Shown: positions 1 through 64,000 of the stretch, piece by piece | How positions within the stretch are numbered: the stretch's first letter is position 1 | How the letters are laid out: every line of letters begins with the position of its first letter | From: Saccostrea cucullata | Lineage: Eukaryota | DNA length: 64,000 nt | Assembly: GCF_032062105.1 (NCBI RefSeq) | Contig: NW_026920935.1 | Coordinates: 372,001 to 436,000 of the forward strand | Direction of reading: 5' to 3' | Position numbers and translations under genes: made by a program | Notes under the pieces: generated by a model | Told to the model about the DNA's origin: nothing | Database searches by the model: none | The model's input: only the letters and a program-made list of their open reading frames with translations

Positions 1-42
1 CTTGGGATCTGTTGTAATTTTTCCATGATTATTAATCCTTAC

Positions 43-6000: not shown

Positions 6001-9000
6001 CATTGAAAAGTGAAAAAAAATTATACATTGTAACTTTTATCAAGTATGTCATAAAAATTGCATAGCTGGGTGGGAAATCTCCAAATTTTAATATTTGCCA
6101 CATTTTCTTATAAATGATAATCACATTACCATATTTAGAGGTGTCGTCATGACAACAGATTGGTTGCCATTGGAAGCTGAGGAGATATTGTACAGGACCA
6201 CAGTCTGGGAGATGTTAGAGACAGCTGAGCTGCCATTGGTTAGATGGCTGTCCTCTTTGAGTTTCACTTGTTCATATGCATAATTTATAATCAGCTCAAT
6301 GCACCAAGGTCCAACAAATTGGATGATGTCTCCGAAAAAACGCAGAAAGCCGGCCAAACATAGATTCTTCCAGAAGACTCGCAGGTACACCTTGTGGAAA
6401 TTGAGTTTTTTGCCATTTCTCTGACTTTTGTCCTACAAAGAGGAGAAACAGATTCAGATCTGTAGTAAATATCCCTTGCTTTTAGGCAAAACATGGGGGA
6501 AAAGTTACACAAAGTCTTCTAATTTTTTGGTAATTTATGTGTTGAAATTCAATTAACTTTAGAGTAAGTTAAAATCTCAGAATGTTTTTTTTTATCAGAC
6601 AAAATATACATGTAAATGTTAGGTAAATGAGCTACAGAATTATGACTTTGTTCAAGCTGATTACAGAAGACTTACCAATTCATCCTCAAATACAGCCTTA
6701 AATCTTCTATACACAGACTCCACTTGTATGTCCTGCAAATGTATATAGATATTTCAAAGACTTCACAATTTTCATTTAATAAATCAAAAATATTTTGAAT
6801 TATTGATGGAGATTTTTTTTCCATTTTCATGATTTTATAAACTTTATGACATTTAAATGATTTAGATAGCATACAAATGTATAAGACACATACTATACAA
6901 GCAAGCAAATTAAGGACTGTGGCTTTTGTTAATCATGATTAATAATGTTTAAAAAACTGTAGAATAAATAAAAAATCCTGATACACTGCATATCTCAAGT
7001 TTTTGGCAAAGTAAAGTGGAAACTGGAAGAATAAATAGAGAAATTACTGGTATACAGATCCATTTGCACATTTTTCATGATTTAGATGACACCATTTACT
7101 AGTGGAGACCAGACTGCATATTTAGACCTCTATTTGGCACTTATGGCCTTTGAGCAGTGAGGAATTTTTTATGCCAGCATCTAAGTACCCTGAAAAAGTC
7201 TCAAACAAAGGACTGGTTTCTGCATCCCACAGTGGAAATCAAAGCTACAATGTAAGGATTAACTCCATACACACAACTCTAGGGAAAATGTACCACCCAC
7301 TGCACCATGTGGGCAACAAGTTTTATTTCACAATCATATTGATGCTATTTTTGGAAAAAAATCTGTTTTTTGCTAGGACTTCTTTCTTGTTTTACTTGGG
7401 GATTACAATATCTGGTATGGGGTCATATGAATATCAATATTGTTACAGCAAAAAACACCTTGACCTGACATTACTATTAGAAAGTGTACAATGACTTTTT
7501 TATAATTGATATGAGATAAACACTGCCTGTATTATGCATTAACAATTACATGTATATCAGCTAGTCTTCACGAGAAAACTTGTGTTCCATCATTATCAGT
7601 CACTGCTCTCTACCTTACGTGTAAGTGGACAGACTTTTAAGTCATCACTCATATCTCCACTGGACTCTGATGGAGTCAATCATTCAAAGACTCAGGAGAC
7701 CCAGTTCCATTTCAATATTGACCTAATTTACTGATCTGGTTGACCTATTAACTATACAGTTGACATGTACCTATTAGACCTGACTTTGTTGGATACATTG
7801 ACAAAATGTGTCTGTCAGCCTAAAAATTCTTCTGTCAAAAAATCTATTTTGTTTTCTCAAGAAATTAGAATTGTTTGCTGATCATCTTAAACCAAATTTA
7901 TGACTATGTAATGGGAAAGGAGAAAATGCAGTGGACCAGACAGGGATTCGAACCCAGGCCTTCAGGTCAGGTGCTCTACCAAATGAGCTATCTGGCCACC
8001 AGCGATCGAACCCAGCTGACCGCCACAACTGAAAAAGTTTTTCAAATATGGAATTAATTTTCTTTCATTAAGATTTAATCTCATTAACTTGATGAAATTA
8101 TTTAAAATAAAAGCAATTAACAAAATAGCTGGAAATTAAAAGGATTTAATTTTCCTTTACTTTATATGAAGTATGGTGTTCATGGTGTTAAACTTTAATT
8201 CACACAACTATGTGATTTAATTGTAAGTTGCAAATAAAGGTTTCTAAACTTATATACCTTATTTTAAAACTATCAAAAATCATGACAAAATTGTATAGTA
8301 ATCATATATGATATATATTGTGTGGTTCATTTGGATTTTGTTTTATCAAATTCACTTGTATTATAAGCTTATGGGGTATAGGACAATACATGTGCTAGAC
8401 GTGTATCATATTCATGGAGAATTTTTTTGTTTGTATGTTCAACATCTTGAACCAGATTTTCACTCATATGGAGATGCTACCATTTGCAATTTTGTGCTAC
8501 ACTCAAGGCTATTGAGCAGTGCAGGAATCTTTTTCATCATCTGACTTCATCCTGCAATATAAGGATCAACTCCTTACTCCGCAACTCTAGTCTAGAGCAG
8601 TCTTCAAAGAGTGCATTTGTCATAATTTTCTGCTATCATGTTACTGTTGAAAGTTATATACCAGAAACATACACAAGGTAGCTTCAATATTTGTTTAAAA
8701 AAATTCTTAAAGACAAAATTGATAAAACTATTCATTTATCTAGAAATCCGATACATCTCTGTCAGAACTATTTACTAATTTAATATTAATTATCAAATCT
8801 TTCTCTCTTTTTAACATTTGAATTTACTTGTATCAAAAAGTAACAATCAATGGGCAAAGGTAATCATCATATTATGATAAAAGAATTTGATATCCACTAT
8901 CCCATAACACCAACATAGTCAATCATTAATCCATAAAATCTATAGTCAGAATGATTTGCTATTTTTATTATATTTATGATAAAAAGGCATAATTGATAAA

Positions 9001-11584
9001 TTTACTTTATTATTTTTTTTTTGTACAATAGTAATCTGATGACCATGATTTTATTATACATACACATATACATATACAGAGAAATTACACATTAGTCACA
9101 TTTTTTAACTTAGATAAGAGTACAGATCAATTGTAAAAGGTTAAAGATCAGTCTTGACTTACACTTAAGTAAATGGCTAAATGTCCTCTTTTTTGGTACC
9201 ATCTATCTAGATATTTCATTTGTTTAAAGCCAATCCTTAGTTAACTCTATCTATCAGATGTTTCCTTCGAAAATGTTACACCTCAAATTCCTTTTCTGAT
9301 AAAATTTAAATCATATATATATTTTTATAAAGTTTGGGATTCAATCAAGACTTTCAAAAATTTTATTGTAATAGTATTTATTTAGGTTTTCCACACTTGT
9401 GTGATATGTCTCTGAATCAACCTTTTTTAAAAGTCCTGCACCTGTATATCCTATAAGTCCTAAATAATAACCTATTGATTATGTCAATCCCTCTTGAGGG
9501 CAGGTCAACCTTATCAATGAAAGAGTGCATTACAACCTTCAATAGTGAAAGGACATGTTAACTTGATATTGTGGTCAGCTCTACTTCAATGGATTTTATT
9601 TGTTCAAACAGCAGATTGAACTCAATACACTGACATGGTCTACATTAAGTTTCTACCACCTGATTTAGTTAACCAAGTTATTACACATTGGAGATTTCAT
9701 ATCATCATTCCTCTCTGGATTAAGTTCCCTATTTACCTTACATGAATATTGACAAGGATATATATTATAATTAGCATACAACAAATGTGAAATGGACCTC
9801 ATTTATCTGCCCTGATAACTCAACTGACCAACCAAAGACAGATGTAAATCTTGTTGGGTTTTTGTTTGAATTATTTACCGAACACTCGATTTTGTCACCC
9901 CATTTCCTATCTCACTCCTCTACGACTGACAACCCTAATCACGCTAATAAAAGCATGTAAATGTGTATTACACACAAACACAACACTATGGCATGTACAG
10001 AACATGCTGAATGTAATTTACAATTCAAACAACAATTCAGCATTCTAATTGTTCTCAAACATGATTGTTAAATACAATTTTTGCAGCATTTTGTTCAAGC
10101 AAGTAAAATAAAAGTCTCACTACACCAATACTATATCAAAATATAGAATTATTATTAATTCAAAGACAAACTGTCAGGAATTTACAGCTTTGCAAAAATG
10201 AGCTAATGAATAAATCCCCATTTTGATTTTACAAGTTGGCATGCATGTCAATTTACAGCATGGAATTTTAGTCTCTTTTGGTTTTCAACAAAACACATAA
10301 ATACAAAATTATGACCCTTAATAAATTAATCAATACAACATGTTTAATAGATATTTAATTCAATTTTCGACATCAGTAGCTCTCAACATGTGCATGATGT
10401 GCATGTGAAATACTAACTATGCTATTTTATTTGTCTCTAATAATTATCTTGTTTTCTGTGCATTTTTTTTTTATTTCATCTGGAATGATGATAATATTTA
10501 CAGAGTTGATTATATAGAAAAATAGGAACTGTTCGATGACAAAAGCGATAAAAAGTGTAACTTCAAACCTTTGGTAAATGTCCAAGGTCTTCCTGCTCAT
10601 AGGGTTTCTTAAAACCATCTGAAAGGAATCCATTTAGCCACCAAAATGTTACTTTGGATAGAAAGTTCACATGCTTGAATACAAATTTGCTTTCTCCAAG
10701 ATCAGGTGGGGTTTTTGCTGGCACTGGATTTTTGAAGAAGGCATATTTCTGTTGTAAAAATTTAAATTATTTTAAACCATTGTCATCATAATTATACAAT
10801 TTATAGCAATAAGACAGTCCATTTCAAAATTATTTTAATAAATTGTTCTTCTCAAGTAACAAACTTCGATCATTATAAATTATATGTACCAGTATAGCTG
10901 TACTGGTATATACTATTTACACATTAATTTAGTAGGAATTCAGAATTTAAAGGGACAAATTTAATTTGTCTTTAAATGACCTTTAGCCTACTGCTCTACT
11001 TTTCACTTCAACATGTTCAATCTTACCTGGACTCTTAGTAAATTAAGTTCAACCGTCAGTAATATCACATAGAATGCCACATCAATCCAAGTTAACCACA
11101 CTCTCACATGGGCTACAGATATACCATTTTTGTGCAATGAAACACCCTTCAATATTTTTATTGGTAACACCGACATCCAATATGCCAAGATTATAAGTAA
11201 AAATCTTGGAGAATTCCACTGTTCTATGTTATGGTAGAATACAAGAGTCAATATAGTTGCTACAAAGGCAATGATCGGTGGTATGAAGACATGGTAATTT
11301 ACAGTGTCAGGATCTTGGGAATCTGACATAAACCCTTCTGCAATTTCGGTGCCAATTATGATAACCAAAGCAAGTGAAAAAAGCCATCTTACATTGTGCC
11401 CCTTGAAATGTACCCATGTTGTTGCATTGTAGTACTTAGACTTGCACCACACAATCAATATAAACAAACTGACAAGCAAAAATATTGCATGTGGCACAAT
11501 GTTAAGAACATCCACAAAGCATTCATTCTTCACAACACCCTCTGCAACACTTCTAGCTTTGTTTTTAGATCCACAAAAAGACAT
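43..11584 (-). CDS. ABCC9: ABC transporter C family, sulfonylurea-receptor (ABCC8/ABCC9)-like; 5' portion (TMD0, L0, TMD1); continues beyond window start
   Basis: Exons (- strand, all GT-AG, phases consistent): 11584-11027 (MSFCGSK...NLLRVQ, TMD0), 10748-10569 (KYAFFK...FLSKVTFWWLN...DLGHLPK, L0), 6732-6676, 6432-6130, [5853-5698 or 5645-5487], 3045-2890 (AMVYNKGLRLS...GQIINHMSQD), 2708-2574, 1177-1015 (SDKRVKKCNEAIQGIKVIKLLAWE), 797-757, 291-43 (ALSTLALFNILTLP...VSMKRLLRFL). The N-terminal FCG and these motifs match SUR1/SUR2. ABCC8 versus ABCC9 cannot be resolved for an invertebrate. Confidence 0.92.
1208..2266. mobile_element. Non-autonomous Tc1/mariner-type element in SUR intron
   Basis: Imperfect ~27-bp TIR (T/C)GAGGGTTGTCCAAAA..TT.GTGGAC at both ends, flanked by TA (1206-1207, 2267-2268); no transposase ORF. 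Confidence 0.85.
4556..4914. mobile_element. MITE with GGCC termini and TAA TSD (PIF/Harbinger- or Zator-type)
   Basis: TIR GGCCTAGAAAAAAAATATGTTTGTTTCC, TSD TAA at 4553-4555 and 4915-4917; internal GGTAGGTAGG/GGTCGGTCGG motifs. Confidence 0.85.
4922..5359. repeat. Diverged two-copy tandem duplication, ~215-bp unit
   Basis: TTTTTCTG.TGTTGATTTTGTATTTGATCT...CCAAAACATGG.TGAAA...CATATACCCTACA...AATCCATATGTAAAT...TCTTATCAGCA occurs at ~4922-5128 and ~5137-5359. Confidence 0.75.
5487..5645 (-). CDS. SUR-like alternative exon B (159 nt, phase 0-0, paralog of exon A)
   Basis: ttgcag|ACC...CAG|gtacgc; TMHARYITVADFFSNGYVVAVVLILTTTIQAACHQFYGFISLNTGASLKVAVQ; colinear with exon A. Confidence 0.85.
5698..5853 (-). 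CDS. SUR-like alternative exon A (156 nt, phase 0-0, TM7 region)
   Basis: ttcag|GAC...CAG|gtacac; DVNSYVTASEFFSNGYVLAAGLLILTVIQNSLWQQHHYLVILEAAKLRASIQ. Confidence 0.88.
7932..8030 (-). repeat. tRNA-derived sequence (SINE head or tRNA pseudogene)
   Basis: Minus strand GGCCAGA TAGCTCATTTGGTAGAGC ... CTGGGTTCGAATCCCTG TCTGGTCC: A box, B box, acceptor-, D- and T-stems present; anticodon arm truncated. Confidence 0.65.
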
Positions 11585-11599
11585 GTTTTCTGTCACTAC

Positions 11600-12277
11600 C
11601 TTGCGAGGAATAAATCTTACTCTGTCATTCTTTGTAATTTACATATTGAAAGTAAAGGTGAAATTATGTTACGCTCGGGCAACAAAGGTCGTATTGCATA
11701 ATAAATAGTAACGGCAAAAACGACCCAAAAAATAAACCCCGTTCAGGTCACAGGGAGAATTCGGCTAAATTGCCAAACAACACTCATGTACTTCTAAATG
11801 CGACTTCCGGTGGGTCAACAAATAGTTAGATTACATGGATATAAATCTAGTGTGAATACAACAGATAAAAGCATTTTATTTAATTTCATTAATTTGCCAA
11901 AATATACTTAAACTAGTATATTGTTTTGAATAAGTCAATCTTTTGAACAAAAAAATTCGAAATATTCTTGCGCGAATTAAATACAGTAAGTCGACTAAAA
12001 ATGCTTCGGTTTAAAATCCCCAAACCTAGAAATCGGATGAACTGAATTATTTTCACGTTAGATTTTATTATAATGATAAATCTTTTGAATAATGAATTAT
12101 TTGATTTTTCATGTTAATGACTGTCATGAAATATTGAGCGTATTTTTAGAATCCGAATCATTAAATGAAATAGTTAACTACGTTGGACAAGAAAAATAAA
12201 TCCTGTATCCATTTGTGTCATTGTGTGTGAGTTCCAAAGCGGAATATCAAGCTCAATTTTAATATCAGTAGTGGACA
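11600..12277. promoter_or_regulatory. Putative bidirectional promoter between SUR-like gene and SPT4
   Basis: Divergent start codons at 11584 (-) and 12278 (+), ~700 bp apart; local CpG enrichment; ETS-like ACTTCCGG at ~11803. Confidence 0.55.
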
Positions 12278-24200: not shown

Positions 24201-27200
24201 CTTTGTAAATGTTGTTAAAATCTCAGATGCATAGAGTTTGTCTTATTTAATTACGCTTACAGGGAATATGGCACCAAAAGGGAGTTGGGGAGCGTTTGGG
24301 GAACATCTGTAACGGTCCCCGTTACAATTAGCACTAGTTGACTTTGAAAAAGCCTTTGATACACTTTCATGGAACTTTATACAAGGTGCACTTAACTTTT
24401 TTAACTTTGGACCCTCAATCAAGAAGTGGGTATCCCTTTTTAATACAGATATTACATCTGCAATAAACCAAGGTGGTAACCTTTCTGATAGAATTAACAT
24501 TCAGAGGGGTTGTAGGCAAGGCGATCCTTTGTCACCATATATATTCATTATATGTGCAGAAATTTTAGCAATCCAAATTAGATTAAATAAAAATATTAAA
24601 GGTATTTCTATAAACAATACTGAAAAAAAGATTTCTCAGTTAGCGGATGATACATCAATTATTCTTGATGGTAGTAAAATGTCCCTCATAAAAAACATTG
24701 CAAACACTTAAGACATTTTCAGAATTTTCTGGATTACATACATGTGTATAAATTATTCCAAAACTCACATAGTGTGGATAGGCTCCAAAAAGTTTAGTGA
24801 TGAAAATTGCTGCCAAATTACAAACTTAACTGGGGAACTACCAGATTTACTCTTCTTGGAATACATTTTGATGTAGAAATGGATAAAATACTACCATTAA
24901 ATTATGAACCAAAACTGGTACATATTAAATCAATACTTAAACAATGGGAGAAAAGGTATTTAACTCCCATAGGGAAAATTACTGTTATTAAAACATTAGT
25001 TCTACCATTACTAAATCATATTTTGATGTCCATCCCAAATCCTTCTGAATCATTCTGTAAGGAATTGGAAAAAATGTTTTTTTCATTTATATGGAATAAT
25101 TCAACCCATAGGGTTAAGAAAGAAGTAATTGTAAAAAAAATGTGAAGAGGGGGGTTTAAAAATGTTAAATCTAACATCTTTTATAGCCTCCATGAAATTA
25201 TTTTGGATAAGGCATCTAATTTTTACAAATAGAGGGTTGGAAAACCTCATTCCTAAATTTAATTTGAACAAATTTATAAGTTGTGGAATTGAATATACTT
25301 CAACTTTTTTAAAAACATTAAAAAATAAATTTTGGATAGATGTTTTTAAGTCCTGGATAATGTTACAAAATCTTGAGAAAAAGTTTGATGTTGCTGGTGA
25401 CTCACCACTATTTTACAATCCACATTTGCATATTGGCGGAAAACCATTTTATAATAAAAATATGTTTGAGAGCAACATTAGACAAATTAATGATATCATT
25501 AATGAAGATGGTTCACTATTTTCTTATGAGCAGTTGTGTAACACCTATCCAAATATAAAGATTAATTTCTTAGAATTCAGGAGTATTATTCATGCTATAA
25601 AGGATTGGATGAAAAACTCCGGTCAGGAAAAAACAATAAAAAAGCTCACAAATCCCATGATTATGTCTAATATCTACACAATAACAAAATGTAGAAAATC
25701 AAAATGCTATTATGAAATCCTTATTCAAAATTCTTCTGTCACAGCAGGTAGAACTTATTGGAGTGAGCTTTTAGAAGTTGGAACTCAGGAATGGAAAAAA
25801 ATTCACATGATACCCTTTAGGGTAACAAAAGATTGTAAACTACAATGGTTCCAATATAGGATTTTAAACAAAATCCTAGCAACAAATTCATTTTTATTCA
25901 AAATAAAAAAAAATGACTGTAAATTATGCAGTTTTTGTCATACTGAGGATGAAACAATAGAACACCTTTTATGGGAATGTGATAATACACAATTTTTTCT
26001 TGAAGAATTTGTACATTTGTTAGAAGAAAAAACTGGTTTAATGATAAATGTTACTAAGAAATCTTTTATTTTAGGATTTATTGAGGAAAATACTGATATT
26101 CAAAATGTTATTCTACTTTGGCTAAAATACTATATTTATACTGCCAGGTGCACAAAGAAACATATTAACTTACAAAATGCAATATCACAAATGAAATTTC
26201 ATTATGAAACACAGAAAATTATCTCTTATAAGAATGGTAAAAAGGAAAAGTTTGATACCCAGTGGAACAGGTGGAATCTGCTATTCTCTTAAACTTGAAT
26301 CTTTACACATTCTCTTTCTTTTCTCTCTCTCTCTGCTCTCCCCTCTATCTTTCTCTCTATCGTTTCTATCTCTCTTAAAATAAAAAAAAACACAGCAGTC
26401 AGTTTCTTTTGAAATATGTTTATAATGATGTATGTTGTGTGAATAAAAAAAAAAAAAAAAAAAAAAATTGCTTAGAATGACAATACATTGAGATAACAGC
26501 AGTGCAATAAATTCACAGCAGTAGGCTTCGTAGTAATCAACATGAGGTCATATAATTCGGTTGTAAAAATTAGTGATATATCAACTTGATAAATGACCAT
26601 CGATGTTTTATTGCTGAATTGCTGAATGCAGAACATTGTAATTAGTTGCTAAAATACCCAATTGCCATCTTCTAATGCTGCGGTGGTCATTAAAAGATAC
26701 AGTTATAATATGGGTCACACTTTTGACTTTAGTTAAAAATAGATCAAACTACAGGGTGTTGCTAAAAAATATACCTGACTCTACTTTAACTTTGTTGTAT
26801 TTTTAGAAAAATTAATTTTATCTCTTTATATTTTATTTTAAAAATAATTACTGACATAAAATATGTTTACATAAGACCTATATATGTTTTACTTCACGTA
26901 CTGCTAAAAAATTTACTTCACTCTACTTTGTTGTATTTTCTAGAGAAGTTAATTTTATCTCTTCATATTCTATCTAAAAACAAATTACTGACATAAAATA
27001 TGTTACATAAGATCTATGCATGTTTTACTTCACTTACTGGTTGATGTATTAATACCAAATCAAAAATAAAATTTTATTCAATGTTTTAATGATGATGTTA
27101 ACTCTTAATTAATTTCAATGAATTAATTTAATTTTAATTTAGTTTCACTTCTGAGCATTTGACTAAAAATTTAAACATATCATTTCAAAGCTAACCTTTA

Positions 27201-49242: not shown

Positions 49243-50787
49243 TCAGCCTTGAGAAATGTATTTATAAACACTGATATCACCATTCTTGCCACCAACCCAT
49301 AAACAAGACTTATGAAGATCAACCGAGTATGGCGAATCGAACGCTTCTTGCTTTGTCACGAGATAACGAATGAATTCACCGCATGAACTCAACATGTGAA
49401 TGAAGTTGTGGAGGCAATCTGTCACAATTATGTTACACTGAGCATCGCACACAAGACCTCTCGGATCGAAACGTTTTCTGACGTAGTTTCCGCGGTAATC
49501 AAATTTGAGCGCGCCATCTGACGAGAGAACTCGGAGGACGCCGCTTGATTGGCCAGTCTGGTCTATGACGCAAATATCGCTGTTATAGTTGTGGAAAACA
49601 CGATGAGGTTTGGTGAAAAGTTTTGTGGTTCCATCTTTGTCAAATTCATATGTCGTCAATTCCTCCCCAGCAGGTGAGATCAATTTGATCAAACGTTTAC
49701 TACTTGTGCTTAGTTTAAAACTGTAATCGTCTACTAAGGCAACAAACAGATTCCCATCCAGGGCTTTCCCAATTCCTATTGGTGTAAGTGGCTTTGTTGA
49801 GACAAGGGTTGATATTGTGCCACTTTCGTCCAATTTCTTGACTTCGTCGTTTTCAAAATCTGTGAATATTTGAGCTCCATCAGAACACACGATAAAGTCA
49901 TTTGAAACACTTTTCATTTCTATTGAATTTTTAGTAACTCCGCTTGTGTTAAGCAGGTAGGCACTGCAGTCCCATCCATGGACCCATGCAGCTTCCTCTG
50001 ACACAGAATGGATGGACACAATCGTGTTCGAAAAGTTTTTAAAGTTTGCTAGCCTTATAACTTTTACGTGTTCTGGGTCTATCAGCTTGCCATACATAGT
50101 TTCCAGGGCGGCGTGATCCATTGTACCCTTGAAGAAACAAGGGAGATAACCGTAAGCCGTCAAATCAATGTTATTAACTTCGGTGATCAGCGCCTCCGCT
50201 TCGTTTTTTGTCTCGATTAGTTGAAATCCAGACATGCAACCGGACTGTGTTTCCAGAAATCTTGCCTTGTCTTGCAAGTCTTGTTTAAAGTTGCTGAGAT
50301 TGGTCTTCAAGTTGACAAGCCTTTGTTGACAGCGCGTGTATATTTCTTTGGACTTCTCGATATTGAAATTAGTAATCCTGAAGACCTCTGTCGCCATATC
50401 ATCTTGCTGCCTGACAAGCTTTCTGATTTGACCCGAGTGTCTCTTTTCCTGCTCGTATTCTATTTGGTTGATGAACGATAAGCTTTCTGTAATTTCATGG
50501 ATGCAGCCTCGTATCCCCTGGCAGATTTCTGGGATATCCTTCTTTTTCTCGGCAGATATCTTCTTAATGCTTCCCCATCTATGGTCCTTATGTTCTGTCT
50601 GGCCACACGTCACACAGAAGATGGTCTTGCAATCTTCACAACACATATCCCGGTCCTCGTCATGCTTCCTACATAATGGAAGCACACCCCTAGAGCTCCC
50701 AAATGTAAACTCTCCCATACCAAACTTTAGCTGAGCTTCACAATATAAAGCTTCCTTACATGTTTCATGTTTGAGGCAATGGCTCAT
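49243..50787 (-). CDS. RING-less TRIM-like protein: B-box, coiled coil, NHL-like beta-propeller (514 aa, single coding exon)
   Basis: B-box CRKHDEDRDMCCEDCKTIFCVTCGQTEHKDH; heptad region; propeller motifs PIGIGKALDGNLFV, PHRV..N.NSDICVID, FDPRGLVCDAQCNIIVTD, PYSVDL...LWVG. Confidence 0.88.
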   Translation of the reverse strand: MSHCLKHETCKEALYCEAQLKFGMGEFTFGSSRGVLPLCRKHDEDRDMCCEDCKTIFCVTCGQTEHKDHRWGSIKKISAEKKKDIPEICQGIRGCIHEITESLSFINQIEYEQEKRHSGQIRKLVRQQDDMATEVFRITNFNIEKSKEIYTRCQQRLVNLKTNLSNFKQDLQDKARFLETQSGCMSGFQLIETKNEAEALITEVNNIDLTAYGYLPCFFKGTMDHAALETMYGKLIDPEHVKVIRLANFKNFSNTIVSIHSVSEEAAWVHGWDCSAYLLNTSGVTKNSIEMKSVSNDFIVCSDGAQIFTDFENDEVKKLDESGTISTLVSTKPLTPIGIGKALDGNLFVALVDDYSFKLSTSSKRLIKLISPAGEELTTYEFDKDGTTKLFTKPHRVFHNYNSDICVIDQTGQSSGVLRVLSSDGALKFDYRGNYVRKRFDPRGLVCDAQCNIIVTDCLHNFIHMLSSCGEFIRYLVTKQEAFDSPYSVDLHKSCLWVGGKNGDISVYKYISQG

Positions 50788-51399
50788 TTTAGACCGAAGC
50801 GCTTATCCCCATAGGTCAAACAGTTTTGCGTCCTGTTTTATTTCCATATAGTGTCAAAATGTGGAAGGTACCGATTATTCTTTTTTAAATAAATGTGCCA
50901 TTGAAATGGAATCACACATGGGAAATAGATAATTAAAAATGAGGAAGTAAACAAAATAAACTGATACTGTTACAATTGATCCAAGGAAAATGTTTGTAAA
51001 TAGTGGATGGCTTTCGGCTCAAAGAGGAAGAGGATCAAAGAATTGTATTTAATGACCACAAACAGAAAGATTAAATATATTTTTCCAAAGTGGAAAAAAG
51101 TCCGTGAACTGCTAAACAGATCGTCTTAGCAATTGCACAACTCTCAGATAATATCCATCATGTATATGTATGTGTAGGCCTATACGTTGAAAATTTTAAC
51201 ATTTCCTTAGATGATTTTTATGACGTAGTTTATTTAAATTCTTTAATCACGTAAATAAACTTTTGACACAGTTTCATGTGAACGTTGAGACGTAACAATT
51301 ATTCATAACTTTTCTTCATGCATCTGATTTAAAAGTCCAGACAGATTACTAACTCGCGCTGTCTATGCCCCCAAGGTGCCCTGATAGCTTTTATTAGCT

Positions 51400-51577
51400 C
51401 GCTAATCTTTACCTGACACCAGCGCGTAAAGACTTCGATTTGCTCGGCTAGTTTATAGTGGCGAGCTCTATATTTAGAACACTGTAGCCTAAACATTAGC
51501 ATTGAGACCCGGATTAGCGTGCCGCGGCTGCGATATCCGCCATTTTGCTAAGGTTTTCGCTACAGTGTTCCGTGTTG
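51400..51577. promoter_or_regulatory. CpG-rich putative bidirectional promoter and non-coding first exon(s)
   Basis: YY1-like CCGCCATTTT (~51538); + strand donor TTG|GTAAGT at 51577/51578 pairing with acceptor TTTAG at 52147; - strand donor CAG|GTAAAG at ~51413. Confidence 0.5.
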
Positions 51578-52152
51578 GTAAGTTTTAAAGATGTTGAACA
51601 ATTAAACAGTATTTCTTGTTAAATTGAATCACCTTGACTCCGTAGGTTGGTATCATAAACTTAACGTGAATAGTCAGGGCGTCTGCTTGAATATCAGTTC
51701 ACAATGGACTTCGCTAGTTCATATGTAGTTGCTATGTATTGATCGTATTATTAATTGCCACATGTAGCTTCGTTCGTGTGGAATCTCATATTCTTTAACT
51801 TTATATTCTATTATATCCTTTGTTTTGACAATGTTTACTGATAGTTGAGATACTTTGTATTCTTGAATAGATCTAGATCTATTGTTGAGATTTTAGCACT
51901 GTGTAGGGTAAATGACTATATTGGAATAGCAATTGCAGTTAATCTGAAAAGTAAAAGTAGCATATATATATTTTAAATATATAAATAATAATTAAATATA
52001 TTTTAATAAAGAGAAAGTTATGTGTATTGTACTTGTTTTATGGAAAATTGAATATTTACAATGAATATTTATATACATAAAATTAGGTACTAAACGTTGT
52101 AAAAATTTAATAAAAACAAAATTTAAACATAAAATTATTTGCTTTAGATTTG

Positions 52153-54856
52153 ATGTTCACTATGGACGACCGGATGGAAATTTTCAAACTGGCGCAATCC
52201 TATAAGATAAAATGGGAACTACTACTTGAAAGCAAGGTGCACGATGAGCTTTGTGCACATGCGCAGTCCTTAGGATGTGAACTGGATCTGCTACTATTAC
52301 CTGTGTTTGTGTCTGTAGCCAGTGCAATGGGACCCAATACAAAGGTCAAGGTTACCAAAAGTTGGACAGAATATCTTAACCTTACTGGCATTGTAGCAGC
52401 AAGACGAGGTGAAAGAAAGTCGACAGTATTAAATTGTATTAAAACTTGTAGTCGACACATGAAAAACTTCAAAGACGACAAAGAAATAGAGGACAAACCC
52501 CAGGTCGCGGTCATAGACGAGTCCTTTGTAGATAACATTACAGAAACCTGCAGAATCAGGGGAAGTCGTATGTTTATTATAGACGACCTTGACAATGTTA
52601 TTAAAGAGGTGATACAAATACCTGATATCTGGAATCTTCGCACCTTGCAATCGTCCTTGACCTCTTGTTCAGAACAGAATGGTGGTCCTCCTAGCAACTG
52701 TGTAAACGTCATAGCAGCGGTCCAGGCAGCCAATATCTCGGAGATCGTTAACTTGCCTGACCCGGGGCGGCTTGTGGATAGGATTTTAGTTTTGTGTGCA
52801 AGGGATTCTGAAGATATTGTGACATCTATCAAACCAAGTGAAACTTTAGATACAATACTCCAAAAGATATACGATTTACATGTTGATAAAGATGTTACTT
52901 ACACATTCAGTGAAGAGGCGACACGAGAGTTTGAGAGGTATACTTCCAAAAGATTTGTTTACTGAAAATCAAGAAGGTTCCTGTGTGTCTCAGATAGATT
53001 TATTTAAATTATTTTGCACTATGATGACTGGAGATTGATGATCTTCGTATATAAGCATTTAAACTGCTTTTAAAATAATTTAAAATAACTCCTTTCCGTC
53101 TTGGAAAATATATACCCAGTATATAAAAATGACATGTACTTTTGCATATGCAAGCTTTGTCTTAAAGTGTTATACATCTCGCTTTCCAATAAAAAATTGG
53201 ATTTAATACATTATATTTACTTAAAATGACATCTTTCTAAGTTTTTTTCCTTCTTGCTTTTTCAGAATGTCCGGAGTAGTCAATTCTCTTAAAAAACAGT
53301 GCCATAATGATGAACTGAAACGAGGTTGAAACTCATGTGGAATCATCCTCAGGTAGTGTAGAATCAAGTTTGTTCAAATCATGACCCCCGGGGCTAGGGT
53401 GGGGCCAAAATGCAAGTACTTCAAAGCTATGACTTGTGATATTTATATAGAATCATCCTCAGGTAGTGTAGATTCTAGTTTGTTCAAATGATGAACGCCG
53501 GGGGGGGGGGGGGTGGAGTAAATTTAAGCCTGATGTGCTCAGGTGAGCGCTGTAACGTTTCTCGCTTGCTTTTTCAGAATGTCCGGAATAGTCAATTCTC
53601 TTAAGAAACAGTGCCATAATGATGAACTGAAACGAGGTTGTGCTAATCACGTGATGTCCCAAATGGCGCGATTAAGCGTCATATCAACTGCTTTGACGGC
53701 TGCAATGACAGAACCCAACACAGATTTTACCATAACCAAAACGACTGTGCAGTCTATGTTTGTTGTCTCGCTGTACCTGCTGCGACAAAAATGTCTGCTG
53801 CTACATGGATCTGACAGTGCTACATACTCCGAACTATTTCACTCTATTCTTAGTAGTGAAGTTGAGCTACTTACATCGATGAATACTACAAATGAATTCA
53901 GTGGGAGAGAGAACGAAGATGACGTCATAGAAATCACTCTGGATGGCAACAATGAACCCGTTGCCAGAATTATACCAAAACGTGACGACTCAGTGGAGAC
54001 CAATGGCGACGAACCAGCTCGGAATCAGCAATCTGACGTCACCATGTGGACAATGGAGAACAGAGACAATGCCACTAGCCAGAGTGAGCGAGAAACAAGC
54101 AGCGTGTATTATCCAAGTGCACCACAGGAAGTGATCGGTCACCCCAAACACCCTCCACTTAATCAAGAGACAAGTAATCGCCAACATTACGAACCAAATC
54201 AAACACTACCTCTGGATGGCGACAGTAAACAGTTTAACAATTCTGGCGTTCTTCGACCAAGAGGCAAATTTCGTCCTCCACCTCCGCCATTAAAACTTCG
54301 ACCACATCAGCTTCATGTGAACCGTCGATTTATTCCTGCCCCCAAACGTTTGACCGACAAAACACAACTCAAAACATGCATATTCACATGCAGTGATAGT
54401 ATTTTTGTACAACTGTGTTGCGCTAAAATCAGAAAATGTCTGTTGACAAAAGGAGTATTCATCACTTCCTCCTACGCCTGCCAGTACCGCCTTTTCCCGC
54501 CCGTTCCCCTGGTACAGAGGACGTCTTCTCCGCGGACCACCCATCCATCGTGGGCGGCCGTGAAATTCTTTGAACGTTTAGAATCTCTTGGCTTTGGCGA
54601 GGTCATGGTCTTTCGTTCACAGTCGGTAAAATTTAGAAAGAAGTCTCTAGAGGAAATGTCAGAAAAAGCGAGGACAATACTAAGACAGGTGGGGATCACT
54701 GATGAGGACTTCAGATCTTCTCTGACGACGGAGGAGGAAGTTCAGGGGTCCATACAGGAGTATAATTATATTTTCACCGTCCATCAGAACGGGGAGATCG
54801 AAACTGAACAAATGCAGCAGATGGAGGTTGAGCAGAAAGTCCATCAGCAGACGTAA
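52153..54856 (+). CDS. DUF3987/YfjI-like (MCM-clade-like AAA+) protein, ~687 aa, two coding exons
   Basis: Exons 52153-52937 (ends GAG AG|gt) and 53578-54856 (cag|A ATG), phase 2. Motif order VASAMG...W.E.LNL.GIVAARRGERKS...FIIDD...NVIAAVQ...G.L.DRIL...YTFSEEA..EF...QMARLS...ITK.TV matches DUF3987 as recalled. Confidence 0.72.
53253..53640 (+). repeat. 76-bp duplication of splice acceptor and exon start flanking a HINE 3' fragment
   Basis: Copies 53253-53328 and 53565-53640 (2 mismatches); spacer holds CATCCTCAGGTAGTGTAGA..CAAGTTTGTTCAAATCATGACCCC units and CTCAGGTGAGCG as in the 35390 HINE. Confidence 0.88.
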
Positions 54857-56472
54857 AACAGTTTTTTTGCCCACGACTGAGTAACAAAGTCCGAATATGT
54901 TATTATCACATCGATTAATACTGTTACAAATCAAAATAAAAAAAAAAATATTCTGTCTTTTCTTATAATATTGGTTTTGTCTACTTTTCCCTCATAGCAG
55001 CTAAAACATAAATGTATTTTAAAGACTTCTAGGAGGTGGATTCAGGATGTTCAGCATAGAAAGGGGTTTGGGTGCTGAATAAATTCATACCTCAAAGAAA
55101 CAAATAAAATGAAATTGATTGTTTTATTTATTTTCTATTTAATGAACGTGCTTTAAATGCTACATGATTAGAGATGGTAGGTTCCCTTTTTTTAACATAA
55201 ACATTTCTGACATAACAAAGACCTTCAAAGAAAATTTCAGTGGTCAAATATGCCCCCTGTTACGTGGCTGTTGAATTTAATAAAATATTTATATCTTTAA
55301 GGAACCGTCCAAGCTGTTGGGTATGAAGAACTTGGAATTTTAATTTATATTCAATTGCCAAGATATGAACAATCAAACAGCCATTGCAATACAGATAGGT
55401 TAATCTGACGAATAAAACGATTGTTGTAACTAAGTCATGTTGATATCTGTCGGAGAGGTATCGATTTCGATCATCAGCTGACTATGAATGGACAGATACA
55501 TATATACTGTAGTATATCACCACGGTCCGGTAACAAGGCTCGTCGTTAATTACGCAAGGTCCTCTTAAGATTTTAAATTTAGTTCTGTAAAATCCTGTCC
55601 ACGTGGTCCGGGATTAAGAGATCAGTTGTGTGTACAGACAGGCAGCATGGCTCTGTTTACGTGTCACTGAATCGTTCATAACAAAGTACCATCCGGCGCT
55701 ATAGGGGTGGAGGAGCATACCTACAAGGGCGCTGACCTATATTGTGCTAGGTAAGTGTTATTTTCCATTGAGATTTTAAGACTCCTTCCCACCCCCTTCA
55801 CCGAACTATCACCTTCTAAACTATATGGAATAGGTAAAAGTATTTTTTTTTTGGTAGTGTTGATTTAGCATATGAAATATTTATTTAAGGCAATTGTAAA
55901 CAAAACGTAAAGAGAAAACATCGTTTTTCATGAGATGGAAGATAAGTATATTTATTATATATTGGAGAGAATCTTTCTCGGGTTGTTCCATTGAACACCC
56001 TAGAAATTAAGTGTCTCACTTAATAAATATATAGAATTTCATTTGTTATGTTATTTAGTAAACTACATTATCGTTAATAGTCGTTTTTTGAACCATGCAC
56101 TTACAGGTTATCATAATACCTTGGGAGAAAAACACGATTGTGACAGTAATTAAAATGAGGTTAAGGTCAAAGGAAAGGTCAGGGCAAAAAAAAATATGTC
56201 AATGAATTTTGGATGGCTCTGATTATAAAGTATCAGCATATGAAAAGTTTCTTTGACACAAGGACAGAAGACTATGATATACACTATTAATAAATTCAAA
56301 ATTTATTTTTTATCTTCAATTAAGTTATTTCCGGCGGATGTCCCTTTTCACAGCAACAATAGTGCACATCTGTTCTCCTCTGGAAAGAAGAGAGATCTTA
56401 TTAAACCCTGACACAATTTCCCCGATTCATCATTTCTCCTTTTTATGTTAGAACACAGATGACACTGAAGAC

Positions 56473-58747
56473 ATGGAAAATATAGCTCTAAACGACCAAA
56501 ACAAAACGGATGAGTAAGATTTATTATACACTCTCTATGGCTTCCTTCAGAGGGTTTATTTAAGTTCAAGTTTATGATTTTGTTTTTGATTGTTAATTTT
56601 GAAAGAAAATCTTTTGTTTAAATCTTAGCAAAAGTATATGCTGATGTAAGTTATAACTGTGCTAGTATTAAACTGTTTAATTTTATTACAGTAAACAGAA
56701 TCCGTCTCGATCACAGTCTTCGGCAAATAAAGTTTATCCAACAGGGTCCTTTATACATAATTCTGATGTGGAGCCATCTTTCGAAAAGGACGAACATATC
56801 TACTGTTTCAGGAACGCCAAAAAAGGATACGCTGTTCTTATAATGAATTATGAGTTTGTAGATGAAGACGAAAATTTACCTGGAGTAAAACGTGACCTTG
56901 AAGATATGTCCAAACTATTTGATTCTATGGGTTTTGAAGTGAGGGAGTTTGTTAATCTTACAAATGTAGAACTAGTATCAGAGCTTGAAGGTAGGTATCC
57001 ACTGATTGTGTAATGCTTTCACCAATTAAAGAATACTGTAGACTGTGTAAAGCTTTGAGTGTAGTCCATACATTTCAATAGTATTTTCAGGGACAAAAAA
57101 CAAACTTGTCAAATCCTGAAAACCTATTTTGATAGTGAAGTGAGAAGACATTTCTAATTTACTCTCAGTACATTGTTTAAAGTGGTCCTTTTCTATGGAG
57201 CGTGGAAGATCATTTTTTGTTACTTTTTCATGGAAATTGAATAACAGTTATTGAAAAAAAGCATGGAGGATCCGAGCCTTGAACTTTCCCCCAGTAATAT
57301 AAAGTGTCTTGTTTTAGGTATCCGAAAGGAGATGCCTAGTGATTGTGACTGCTTTGTATGTGTCATCAGTACCCATGGAGGAGAGGATCCAGGATTTTAT
57401 AATGGTTATCCTAAAGAATCATTTACAAAGACCGAGCACTATCTGTTGAACACGGAAGGCGCAGTCTGGACACGGCAGATTGTAGGCATGTTTAACAATC
57501 AGCAATGTAGAGCACTCAAAGGGAAACCCAAGTTATTCTTCATTCAGGTCAGAGCACCTTAAGAATAAACTAATTTCACAAAATATCTGTACGAGAACAA
57601 GGCATTTGAACATTTAAAATATTTATTATCGCATTGTATTTATTAGGCTTGTCGAGGAAGGGGTGTAGATAAAGGTGTTGATTTGTTAGAAAATAACGGC
57701 GACGAAAGTGACGACGATTCTGTAGACAAGGAAGTGTTCCAAATCCCATGTTACAACGATTCCTTGGTGATGTTTTCTTCTACCTCAGGTATTTAGATAT
57801 ATATTGACGAAAGTTTTACCTAAAAGCACTATTTATGTCTACTTTTACCTAACACAACATTGATATTTTCCTCCCCCAATAATATCGTTTCATCGGTCAA
57901 TATACAACCTTTTTAAAGAATTCATCTACTCAATGTAAGGTAAAAAGTAGTTTTTGGACACATGGGTAACTCGGGTTACATATCACCACTCCTCCCTCAG
58001 CATGCCGGGGGTTGAGAAGGGGAGGGGCAAAAACAAATCAAAATAATGCAATCTTTTCATTTGATTTCTCAAGTTCCCAAAATATCTATGGCAAAGTCAT
58101 TTGTCTCACTGAATTCGGCGACTTGTACTTTTGCAGAGTCGGAAAAAATGTTTCTTCATCTTTTCTTAATTTGTTTTAGTTTTAACTTTGTATGGGCAAC
58201 AATGAACAGCTTATCTCTCTCAAAAAAGCCAACAAACCAGTCAAGGAATAAAACAAAAATTGAAAATTGCTTATCAAAATATAAGAAGTACACTTGTATT
58301 GAAATATATCTGCAAGAAAGTATGTTTTAGTCATCAAATATAGACGCAAACTAACATTTTTAAAGGATTATATTTGAAATACTCGTGTTATGCCATCAAG
58401 AAACAGAATTTTATTCTTATTTAAATTGATCATTTTCAAAATACTTTTAATTCACCAGCTGCAAAGGATGCTTGGACAATAAACTACACATTGAATTTTT
58501 TCCAGGTAAATATGCGTGGTCTGAAGATTTGGAAGGTGGCTGGCTTCTCTCAGCCTTACAAAAGGTGTTTTCCAGTAATACTGGGGAGGACCTACTTTCA
58601 CTTTTGACACAAGTTTGTGGAGATGTGGCGACTAGAGAAGCATTTATACCGTGTAACAAGAGGGCCCATCAGTCAAAGAGCACCGCCTGCATTTATCACA
58701 AACTGTCTAAAGACATTCATTTTCCTCCGTTCAAGCTTAAAAAATGA
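56473..58747 (+). CDS. Caspase (peptidase C14A), short prodomain, ~317 aa, atypical S1 pocket
   Basis: Exons 56473-56513, 56692-56990, 57318-57547 (CFVCVISTHG...LKGKPKLFFIQ), 57647-57788 (ACRG...), 58506-58747; 954 nt, phases consistent; probable 5' UTR exon ending at 55750. The start codon is less certain. Confidence 0.9.
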
Positions 58748-59539
58748 AAAAAAATCTTTTATATCATTTAAAGATGGACCATAGACTATTTCGAAATTTC
58801 TGTACAAGAAACTTCGAGGAAACTTAGGCCCGCAGGAAGCAATTTCAGTTTGAGAAGGGGCACAGCCTCATAGAAATGCTTGACAAGCCAAGAAAGCATC
58901 AGACAGCCTGAGCATTCATGAAGGTGTGCAACTGTAAACTTGCAAAATTTTGTTCTTCTTTAAGCATAATAAAAGTACAATAATACCAAACAGTAAGTTG
59001 GATAGTCCAAAGAACAAACTGTGTATTTGCACTTGCTAAAGACCAATGTCCATTTGAATTAAACTGTAAGTCACGTACGTACCACATATGATTTCATGTA
59101 TTATGCGTCAGGTTTGTTACTGATATGTTCGATATTCTTGTATATCGTATGGATTCATTTTGAGTTATTGTACATGAAGTGAACATTGCTGTGACTTTTT
59201 CAAAGAACGATGATTTTGGTATTGTGAATAACATTGAGGGGAATTTATCTATGCACTGCCATGGACAACTGCTGCTCAATACCGCTCACATTGCAAGCAG
59301 CAGCCTTAAACGAATGTCGTTAAATACCGTTTACTTTACATTTTGCAATTCGTTCGCTTCTACAGTACTAGTATTTGCTGATTTTACAGGAAGCAATGCT
59401 CCAAATGTCAATGTATTAGTTTTGAAGACTTTAGCAAGTACTGTAGGACTATAGCAGTTGACTTTTTCAGAAGCAGTTTTGAGGAAAATGATTAAAAAAT
59501 AAAAAAAAAATATTAACAATGTTCCAACCATCCACTAGA

Positions 59540-60921: not shown

Positions 60922-61556
60922 CACATTGAAACAAGTATTGTAGTAAAAATATTTCTCGATTTTCGAGTTAAAGAATTTTTCTTTGTTACTTTCATGAATG
61001 AAATGTAAAGAATATTTAGGAATCCATTTAAATCGGTGGCCAAAAGTGAAACATTAACCTTCAGTAAGTTACAAATAAGAAATCATGAATATCTTATCAC
61101 GTGGTATAGATAAAGGTGATTGACTGATAAACTTGTGGGAAATTCTGCCAAAAAAAAAAATAGACGTCGGCTCACTTTGCATCAATGCAGCAGAATGGCT
61201 ACACTTACAAGCCCGTGTTATCAAAACAAGGCTTTGCTTTAAACCATATTTTCCCACCATTTGCTTTTTTGACCCATTCGTTTTTGTTTGTTAATCGTGT
61301 GTATTGGGATACAATGTAAACTGGTTCTATGGATGAGTGAACAACGGTTACGAGCAGGGGATTAGGGGACCTATTCTCTTTAAACTTGTTCCACGTAATC
61401 CGGGGGCATTCCGACAGTCAACTGATTATTGATTGTGTGTTCGGGTTCCTGTTGGCTTTTCTGGAATTTCTGTTCTAAATTTAACCTTTGTCGTAGGGGG
61501 CTAGTCCCAATGTCCTCACCGGGATAATTCGTTGATACGGTGTGAAATAGTGGGAA

Positions 61557-64000
61557 ATGGAGCCGGAACATCAGGAGAAAGAGTTTCGTGAAAACTTGGA
61601 AGATTTAACCGAGGGTAAGAATAGATTAAATCGACCGTGCTAGATAAAAGCTTACAATGTTGGTCCGATAATTTTAGTTAAGTTATGAAATATGATGTTA
61701 TCTCAATGATAAAGAATTTCATCTAGTAAGGTGTAACGAGTTTCCTATGTAATGACAGTGAATGTCAAACTGTTCATCTGTGTGTGGTTCACGCCGTTTG
61801 GATCAGAAGAAAAGAAAAACTTGACCCAAAACTCGTCAATATTAGTGCCTCTTGAATAGACTAACTTATAAAGATATGACAAACAACAAAAGAAAACTTC
61901 CGTCCTTTTAATAATTATATATATAATAAGCCAGAACATGGCAAATATTCTGCAGACTTCGTGTTTAGTTTTAGAAATGCTAAAGATCGACTTGTTTTGT
62001 TTTAGGGAGGATTACAATTTGCTGCTTCTAGAAGTCCTGAATACATTGTATTTGTTTTTTCTGTAGATTACACTGACAACTATCAAACGACTAAAAATGT
62101 CAATAGAAATATTGATAACATATCGTTAGTGACCTAACAATGCAACACGAATCACCTAACGCATAAAAAAAAACCCGTATGTCCAGTCACGAGACTCAAG
62201 GACTTTCGTTTTTTAAAAAAGAGGAAATTTGAGTACATACAGACGTGCATATCATTATGCATCCGAAGTCTGCATTTTTCCTTCTACGTACCACAATTTA
62301 CTTTAGCATTGGTGGCACAATTTTATATTATGATTACCGAGAGATGAATGCTTTGGAACGGAAGAAATATTGAATTCATGTATCAAAAGTTATATAATCA
62401 GAATCAGTCTATTTAATATTTTATTTCGAACATTTGTCAAATATCATGACCGAAAATTAAATATTGTGGAATTTCAGTAAAGAAAGTGTATTTGATAAAA
62501 ATTCCTCTCGCTGCTAATTATTTTATTTATTTCAAAATAATCCTTTTATTACTTATTAAAATTACTAGAAATAAAAACTCTTTTACAGAATCAGAACCTG
62601 ACGGACTGAAAGCTGCCTTCAACAAAACACTGAAAGAGTAAGAAATTTTCTGGCTAATTAAATCTTATTAATACATAAGTCGGTCTTTTATGGTGTTTAT
62701 AGGAAGAAATATACATTTCTTGGAATTTTTTCAATAATTCTAGATCATTTGATAAAAAAGTTGAGCTCGTGGAACCTTGATGTCCCGTATGACAGTTTAA
62801 CAAACACGTTTTTAATGGAAGCTATTTATATACAGAGTTCTAATATACTCCCAAAAACTCTACAATACGGAATAGTCATTTGATCACCATATGAGGACAT
62901 TGTCGTTAACCCAAATTTAGTTGTAAAAAGATCGCACATAAAAAAAATCAATAAAGAATTAAACTCTTGAAAGTTGATATTTTAATAGTTTGTGAGGTAA
63001 GGAATAGAGCAAATAATAAAGGCAAACAATGTCGATGATGAGGCGTCAACAGACGGTGCTTAAATTTCTGAGTAGCTGTTAGTCAGTGTAAAAGATATCC
63101 TGTTACTTGTTTAAGTGCTCATACCTGTTCTGTTTAGATACACTAATCACCCTTACTAAGGTTTTGTTCTTTTCAAACTGTGATAAGAATCTAGAAGGAC
63201 CGTCATTGTATCATTGGACCATATGATAATTTGTCCCTATAAGGCTTACAATTTTTAAGGAAGATAATACCTGACTGTATTACACCTGTCAAATTCTTTA
63301 TTTTCAGTTTTCTTGGTCTTAAGTCGAAGAAAAAGAAAAGAAGAAATGGACCTCCCTCAGAAACCAATATCGACGAAGATAAAACCGGTCTTTTGGAGAC
63401 TCGAACCAATCAGAACAGCCGGAAACCACGTGCAGTTCCCAGCGTACCAGAGTCTGAAGATACCATACGTCAATCACAGGGCTCCGAAGAACTCAACTGG
63501 TCATACCCAGAGTCGTCCCGCCCACAAACCGATCATGGCCACCAGCCGTCTGTTGACGATACCAGATACAACTTCCGCCACGAGAAGATCGGTCATGCTG
63601 TCCTTGTAATTAACAGTATATTTGACAGCCAATCTGAAAGAAAAAATGCTGCATGGGATTTATACTTCATGCGTAAAATGTTCCAGGAGATGGGGTTTGA
63701 AGTAAACGTTCTTGAAAACCTTACTTCTAGAAAACTTCTCACTGAAATGAAAAGTAAACAGTTTTTGGTAACATTTTGCTCCAATAACTCAAAATTCATT
63801 GTAAAAATGAATTAAGATCTAGAACCGTTTGAAATGTTATCATTTATTTTATTTCGATAGCTTAACTGATTTAAATTAATAGTGATGTGGTGCTTGTAAA
63901 TGAATTACAGGTATACAGAAAAGCATTACTGAAGAATCGGACTGTTTTGCCTGTGTCCTCAGTTCACATGGTATGGAGGGACAAACAAGCACTAAGGGGA
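61557..64000 (+). CDS. Second tandem caspase (partial; runs off window end)
   Basis: Exons 61557-61614 (MEPEHQEKEF...), 62589-62637, 63308-63753 (...YNFRHEKIGHAVLVINSIFDSQSERKNAAWD...GFEV..LENLT), 63911->64000 (DCFACVLSSHG); phases consistent and the visible intron positions match the upstream caspase. Confidence 0.85.

Follow-up and report, generated by a model that had tools for sequence, protein, structure and literature searches.

Superfamily-6 ring helicases of the DUF3987 family (PF13148, YfjI-like) are described, in the literature that we searched, only from phages and prokaryotic mobile elements; within that scope, which left out Repbase Reports, most subscription journals and supplements, no eukaryotic DUF3987 gene, mobile or domesticated, was found, nor any description of a superfamily-6 ring helicase as the cargo of a eukaryotic transposon. 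PMC4889955 places the family and reports that phage DUF3987 proteins end in a winged-helix domain, and the characterised superfamily-6 member is AgaPH (PMC11724360). AcademH transposons are reported to carry a helicase (PMC10045372), KDZ and other elements to carry TET/JBP, and RAG1 to have been domesticated from Transib (both in PMC12730594). Here we describe a spliced DUF3987 gene at 52153..54856 (+ strand) of the oyster Saccostrea cucullata, referred to below as the oyster gene, which was analysed within a window of 64 kb, the whole stretch of DNA under study. It is a conserved, single-copy mollusc gene that, on balance, was probably domesticated from a DNA-transposon helicase and now probably encodes an ATP-binding, hydrolysis-poor DNA-binding protein, not a motor. 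The domestication of transposon genes is well known, CENP-B, HARBI1/NAIF1 and ALP1/ALP2 being further examples; the source is unusual here, and the process was perhaps repeated.

The spliced frame, which runs from the ATG at 52153 through a GT donor at 52938 and an AG acceptor ending at 53577 to a stop codon ending at 54856, encodes 687 amino acids and is identical to residues 1-687 of the S. cucullata RefSeq model XP_062597356 (row P0003). The first coding exon (52149..52937, +; residues 1-262, with the ATG at 52153) contains the DUF3987 AAA+ core, and a phase-2 GT-AG intron (52938..53577, +) separates it from the last coding exon (53578..54856, +), which, as defined by the frame and the contigs, contains the AAA+ lid, the linker, the winged-helix-like domain and the stop codon. 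In transcript contigs from a close relative (about 95% alike), the 640-base skip joining 52937 to 53578 was present in four of four runs, three of which are presumed RNA or unlabelled; four further runs covered the last exon, with the upstream exon as a loose end at the identical joint. A non-coding first exon (51490..51577, +), followed by GTAAGT at 51578, was recovered as contig pieces or joints in runs X13, X1 and X7, with an alternative donor after 51645 (+) in run X7, and transcripts reach at least 54936 past the stop codon (55411 in run X19). The initial annotation had proposed a spliced gene with a probable non-coding first exon, and these contigs bear it out: the oyster gene has an intact frame and, on the evidence of its close relative, is transcribed and spliced.

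Two further features were noted around these exons. Inside the intron, at 53246..53328 (+), lies an 83-bp second copy (94%) of the acceptor site and of the beginning of the exon, absent from the initial annotation and followed to about 53550 by a repeat that is high-copy by its depth in contigs; use of the duplicate acceptor, at 53266, would end the protein after 282 aa, and together with the repeat it could act as a stop-bearing exon in the S. cucullata genome. Over the first exon, a 25-bp inverted repeat with a single match in the genome (51477..51570, no strand assigned) is predicted to fold into a long hairpin (z = -4.09; equalled by 0 of 200 shuffles). In run X13, 87 bases of this hairpin are identical, whereas the coding exons differ by about 4.5%.

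Five transposase queries matched nothing in the 64-kb window (best E 0.65), and no inverted repeats bracketing the gene were found, in agreement with the earlier claim that terminal inverted repeats and a transposase are absent nearby. Its upstream neighbour is a divergent single-exon B-box (TRIM-like) gene, not a transposase (49243..50802, −; zf-B_box match 1e-4, under the cut-off), which lies head-to-head about 700 bases from the first exon, so placed that a shared promoter is possible. Farther off, exons of an ABCC-type transporter occupy 1-11640 on the minus strand (TMD0 match 2.6e-4, under the cut-off), and at 20202-26292 lies a non-LTR retrotransposon whose first frame encodes a coiled coil and whose endonuclease/reverse-transcriptase frame is broken. 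Two tandem caspase-domain genes lie downstream, at 55558-58748 and 61553-64000 (PF00656, 1e-7 and 6e-7).

In RefSeq, the first of these caspase genes (55558..58748, +; contigs and PF00656) is fused to the oyster gene, and a caspase neighbour is also found in S. echinata by its gene model. RefSeq models place both domains in one protein in two Saccostrea species (P0003, 990 aa; P0004, 1053 aa); were this fusion real, the AAA+ part would serve the caspase as a platform for oligomerisation. We regard this as very improbable, as the point of fusion differs between the two models, alignment A1 contains 12 other full-length rows that end without a caspase, the contigs continue past the stop codon into 3' untranslated sequence, and the caspase has its own first exons at 55558-55748 and 56323-56513. 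Furthermore, among the joints listed in eight runs none links the two genes, in contigs that drop rare forms. The RefSeq AAA+-caspase fusion is therefore likely an annotation error, and the present analysis flags it as a likely false fusion in two RefSeq annotations.

The assignment to DUF3987, first made from the order of motifs, was confirmed at the levels of profile and fold. The Pfam profile (PF13148) matched the oyster protein with 33.7 bits against a curated cut-off of 27 (E = 3e-8) and matched 12 of 12 orthologues. Structural comparison used the predicted model of orthologue P0006 (mean pLDDT 64), in which a long linker of low confidence separates two folded parts; all top Foldseek matches listed for it were MCM proteins (best E 5e-5), and alignment with MCM by VIA-align gave a Z score of 16.1 and an rmsd of 3.8 over 274 aligned residues. 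The second structure match was the MCM homologue 3f8t of M. kandleri, which we take to be inactive. The sequence of P0006 gave 0 matches to solved structures, and a wide search for folds like the exon-3 model returned mainly helical bundles aligned to residues 1-106 and was uninformative on the tail.

All four motifs named in the initial annotation read as stated, although one of them had been misjudged. Walker A, AARRGERKS (K89, S90; 52396..52422, +), had been called degenerate; its Lys and its Ser/Thr are each kept in 21 of 21 orthologue rows, and the alignment makes it a family-normal variant, the same place reading RKGE[RK]K[ST] (RKGERKS, RKGEKKT) in intact animal-type relatives and K-K-S or G-K-S in prokaryote-type rows. 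The claimed loss of the Walker B glutamate stands. In FIIDD (52573..52587, +), D145 occupies the catalytic Glu place of the intact relatives, and this position is D in 17, N in four and E in none of 21 orthologue rows, the first Walker B Asp being present in all 21; the glutamate is found in 19 of 19 comparison rows (six intact relatives, nine prokaryote-type and four Merlin). QA (52723..52728, +) replaces the family QP, with no P in 21 orthologue rows, at a site that we take to be the sensor-1 region. Two predicted arginines persist, namely the arginine finger R210 of DR (52777..52782, +; R in 20 of 21 rows, K in one) and the sensor-2 arginine R293 of ARL (53669..53671, +; R in 15 of 15 rows reaching the site).

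Because the nucleotide-binding residues are invariant while the catalytic residue is free to vary, these alignments suggest ATP binding with little hydrolysis, and the oyster protein is likely an ATP-binding, hydrolysis-poor one. DnaA has DD at Walker B. In lambda terminase, a related ASCE motor, a Glu-to-Asp change slows the motor about 13-fold and Glu-to-Gln or Glu-to-Ala halts it (PMC6379665); by analogy, some slow hydrolysis may remain with Asp at the second Walker B place. The protein could still be a motor, a slow ATPase or a helicase/translocase with an MCM8/9-like role in meiosis, recombination or DNA repair, a reading helped by the retention of both arginines, of the first Asp of Walker B and of the Lys and Ser/Thr of Walker A, by an acid at the catalytic place in 17 of 21 rows and by the weak activity left in the terminase mutant. 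We consider it unlikely, given that four of the 21 rows have Asn at that place, that QP is lost in all, and that a Walker B mutation leaves AgaPH, the one characterised DUF3987 helicase, with no unwinding (PMC11724360).

The comparison of motor and tail also bears on this reading. In the intact helicases the motor is the better conserved part (38% identity, against 25% for the tail; five rows, 10 pairs), and the order is reversed in the orthologues of the oyster gene (31% and 49%; seven rows, 21 pairs), in which the motor is the least conserved folded part. Relative to the close relative, the tail showed 15 silent and one amino-acid difference (pN/pS 0.02) and the AAA+ exon 11 silent and 19 amino-acid differences (pN/pS about 0.50), these ratios being raw counts of displayed differences only (30 of 34-36 and 39 of 42-54). 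A pN/pS near 0.5 in the least conserved folded part of the family argues further against a slow motor, and we return below to an ATP-binding, hydrolysis-poor protein.

Between motor and tail lies the disordered Pro-rich linker that had been predicted, of about 194 aa (53807..54385, +; model and alignment), and the corresponding region of the orthologue model, at residues about 355-527, has a pLDDT under 50. Linkers measure 188-278 residues in the orthologues and 13-32 in the intact relatives, a roughly tenfold difference. The winged-helix-like domain that follows (residues 532-648; 54386..54736, +; model and alignment) is the most conserved part of the protein and folds at high pLDDT as helix-helix-strand-helix-helix-hairpin, a topology in keeping with the earlier suggestion of a possible C-terminal winged helix; its structure matches are weak (Z 5.9-6.5; E 0.3 or worse) and mostly to winged-helix proteins, and the winged-helix matches listed include RNA-binding and protein-binding domains. 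No Pfam family matched the tail. The family profile matched the tails of P0044 (2e-13) and P0051 (5e-7), and no separate tail match was obtained in the prokaryote-type rows.

The distribution of the gene is that of a host gene. The AAA exon and the tail each have one genome match (from 20 and 2 first-look candidates; the counts are lower bounds). Named orthologues were found in oysters, scallops, Pinctada, Potamilus, Solemya and Haliotis, and the orthologue family forms one group (support 100/99) in which, among the named rows, abalone splits off first and Solemya next; across these distant species the orthologues are under purifying selection. A primase domain is absent from 12 orthologues, and the neighbours of the oyster gene are the B-box gene and the caspase. 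Domestication had been proposed earlier, and high-copy dispersed homologues with element boundaries were found only in distant families; the oyster gene itself gave a single match.

Those distant families are themselves informative. The DUF3987 profile matched 14 other contigs of the oyster genome, two of which are near-duplicates over 20 kb, and several of the genes stand head-to-head with an IS1595/Merlin transposase (Pfam confirmed in two tested). The Merlin elements are 5.5-5.7 kb long and have common ends (GGCCC.../...GATCC) and internal 8-bp tandem arrays; their DUF3987 helicase gene is intact and divergently oriented. Four full copies are 93-99% alike, and three of the four have 8-bp target duplications. 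Copies of this Merlin/IS1595 type lie at G000:C2747:400360-406056 and on C11865, C1420 and C3646 (L004-L013, L020-L039). At least two further related families were seen (C14902; C12797/C132; C22949). A second class, the CxC5-KDZ transposons of 9-12 kb (G000:C23558:109487-118685, C23371, C18166, C14195, C467 and C10738), has short inverted ends and carries a divergently oriented DUF3987 gene of several exons, with DE in its Walker B; 8-bp target duplications flank two of two copies tested. Taken together, Merlin and KDZ elements that bear a DUF3987 gene and 8-bp duplications identify the DUF3987 helicase as transposon cargo in oysters. A broken DUF3987 gene was also observed next to a Myb/SANT gene (PF13837, 2.8e-13), an arrangement like that of Harbinger-type elements (L003:1471-2811 on G000:C16236; related copies on C23558 and C21602).

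The presence in the same genome of recently mobile Merlin elements, and of KDZ elements, both with Glu-bearing helicases, raises the possibility of host defence by poisoning, in which a tamed ATP-bound subunit would join active transposon-helicase rings or sit on transposon ends and block their spread; kept binding residues with a lost catalytic Glu would fit a dominant-negative subunit. We doubt this explanation. The oyster's transposon helicases are far from the oyster gene, the Merlin-borne ones forming a separate long branch in the tree and the oyster protein having no tblastn match to the oyster KDZ copies, and a tail engaged in an arms race would be expected to change fast, when that of the oyster protein is nearly frozen. 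Descent of the oyster gene from the oyster's own Merlin-borne helicases was likewise rejected on account of that separate branch.

The ancestry of the domesticated gene was examined in a main tree of 45 chosen rows plus four new ones, with relatives drawn from the best 150 of 1,970 matches (an earlier tree left out five of 71 rows: three near-duplicates, one Merlin duplicate and a broken Pinctada model). The nearest relatives are P0044 and P0056, which have intact motifs and are sister to the oyster-gene family (100/99). The linker of P0044 has 13 residues, and the frame of P0056 ends in the intron column of the oyster gene, a position at which four unnamed orthologue exon fragments also end. 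Family and sister fall in a 39-row group (97/88) with three KDZ-linked rows, a group whose inner branching order the tree leaves unsettled; P0044 and P0056 are known here without genomic context. A scan recovered kin of these two at 35 metagenome loci, and a long transposase-type frame pointing away from the helicase was seen at 10 of them. When frames from five loci were searched with Pfam, KDZ or CxC5 scored above the cut-off at three loci and below it at two. When the family was held with the prokaryote-type rows, the cost was 17.5 log-likelihood units (AU p = 0.072), a placement that is not rejected; the common tail domain and intron column favour the animal transposon route. A tblastn search with P0030 found no match in 50,697 phage records, and among viral contigs 43 pattern matches to alignment A3 yielded 0 confirmed. 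Among atlas clusters, the top feature match was a eukaryotic DUF3987 cluster of 71 members, in which Rotifera is the commonest phylum. Of the mobile or horizontal origin that had been suggested, the mobile part is supported; the nearest sources are animal-type intact helicases, several of them beside KDZ transposases, and not bacterial or phage proteins, though the prokaryote-adjacent tree stays at p = 0.072.

Loss of the catalytic glutamate is not confined to the oyster-gene family. Five other Glu-less animal lineages were found, the rows comprising a second mollusc group (Potamilus, Sinanodonta and Elysia), nemerteans, horseshoe crabs, an unnamed group, and single Diadema and Ptychodera rows; when the second mollusc lineage (P0050) was sought in the oyster genome, the oyster gene was the sole match. 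In four of these groups the linkers have 84-251 residues, and one pair per group gave motor/tail identities of 0.35/0.60, 0.37/0.68, 0.34/0.47 and 0.32/0.35, so that the reversal is clear in three and scarcely present in the horseshoe-crab group. A single origin of all Glu-less lineages was rejected at a modest AU p of 0.028, for a grouping chosen after inspection of the tree, which shows at least two origins, not six. Tentatively, at somewhat less than an even chance, we propose that a phage-type, MCM-like ring helicase is cargo in several superfamilies of animal cut-and-paste transposons, and that molluscs (twice), nemerteans, chelicerates and deuterostomes each tamed it alike, dropping the glutamate, lengthening the linker and freezing the winged helix.

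The direction might also have been the reverse: an old animal host gene, or one acquired directly from a bacterium or phage, would have come first, and copies would later have been captured by transposons. TET/JBP genes are carried and exchanged by fungal transposons of many lineages (PMC12730594), Glu-less relatives are present in molluscs, nemerteans, horseshoe crabs, a sea urchin and a hemichordate, and the prokaryote-adjacent position is tolerated by the AU test (p = 0.072). Such a history is improbable, as it would require many regains or losses of the catalytic Glu and of QP, the Glu-less lineages are not one group (p = 0.028, the group having been named after seeing the tree), and the transposon-type rows keep the short linker.

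Under domestication from a transposon, the donor would have been a KDZ-type element, prior to the bivalve/gastropod split, whose helicase was fixed in an early mollusc, losing its stroke and keeping its grip. The AAA+ domain would still bind ATP-Mg, its arginine finger serving oligomerisation, and the winged helix, tethered by the long and flexible linker, may recognise a fixed DNA target in the way of a chromatin or transcription regulator. This would place transposon motors beside transposases among the known origins of domesticated genes and would offer, in one genome, a natural paired test of an intact transposon helicase and its tamed copy on the path from ATPase to pseudo-enzyme; it also names an unstudied, old mollusc gene with an almost invariant tail. 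If the broader proposal of repeated taming is true, such genes would form a new class of DNA-binding regulators, gated by nucleotide and arisen more than once, with a transposon motor and not a transposase as their source.

Compared with the superfamily-6 DUF3987 helicases that phages and bacterial mobile elements encode, the oyster gene is alike in its Pfam match, its MCM-like fold, its arginine finger, the Lys of Walker A and a predicted winged-helix-like domain at the C-terminus, but it has no primase or PriCT partner, lacks the Walker B Glu, has lost QP, and is a spliced single-copy animal gene with a linker of 190-280 aa ahead of the tail. With MCM2-7, MCM8/9 and archaeal MCM it shares the AAA+ fold (Z 14-16) and, as predicted, the tail winged helix, and catalytically weak MCM members are known; in contrast to these, the model of the oyster family has no N-terminal OB/zinc domain, identity is 9-16%, and the lineage is a different one (DUF3987). 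Among DNA transposons with accessory genes, the oyster Merlin and KDZ elements are likewise cut-and-paste elements with an extra enzyme gene, and their 8-bp duplications are as reported for Merlin and Zisupton; unlike in AcademH and TET/JBP-bearing elements, the cargo is a superfamily-6 ring helicase, and the oyster gene itself lies outside any element. Finally, the oyster gene resembles RAG1, CENP-B, HARBI1/NAIF1 and ALP1/ALP2 in single copy, orthology, purifying selection, and a lost catalytic residue with a kept (here predicted) DNA-binding domain, whereas those genes came from transposases or Myb partners and the oyster gene, on the reading preferred here, from helicase cargo.
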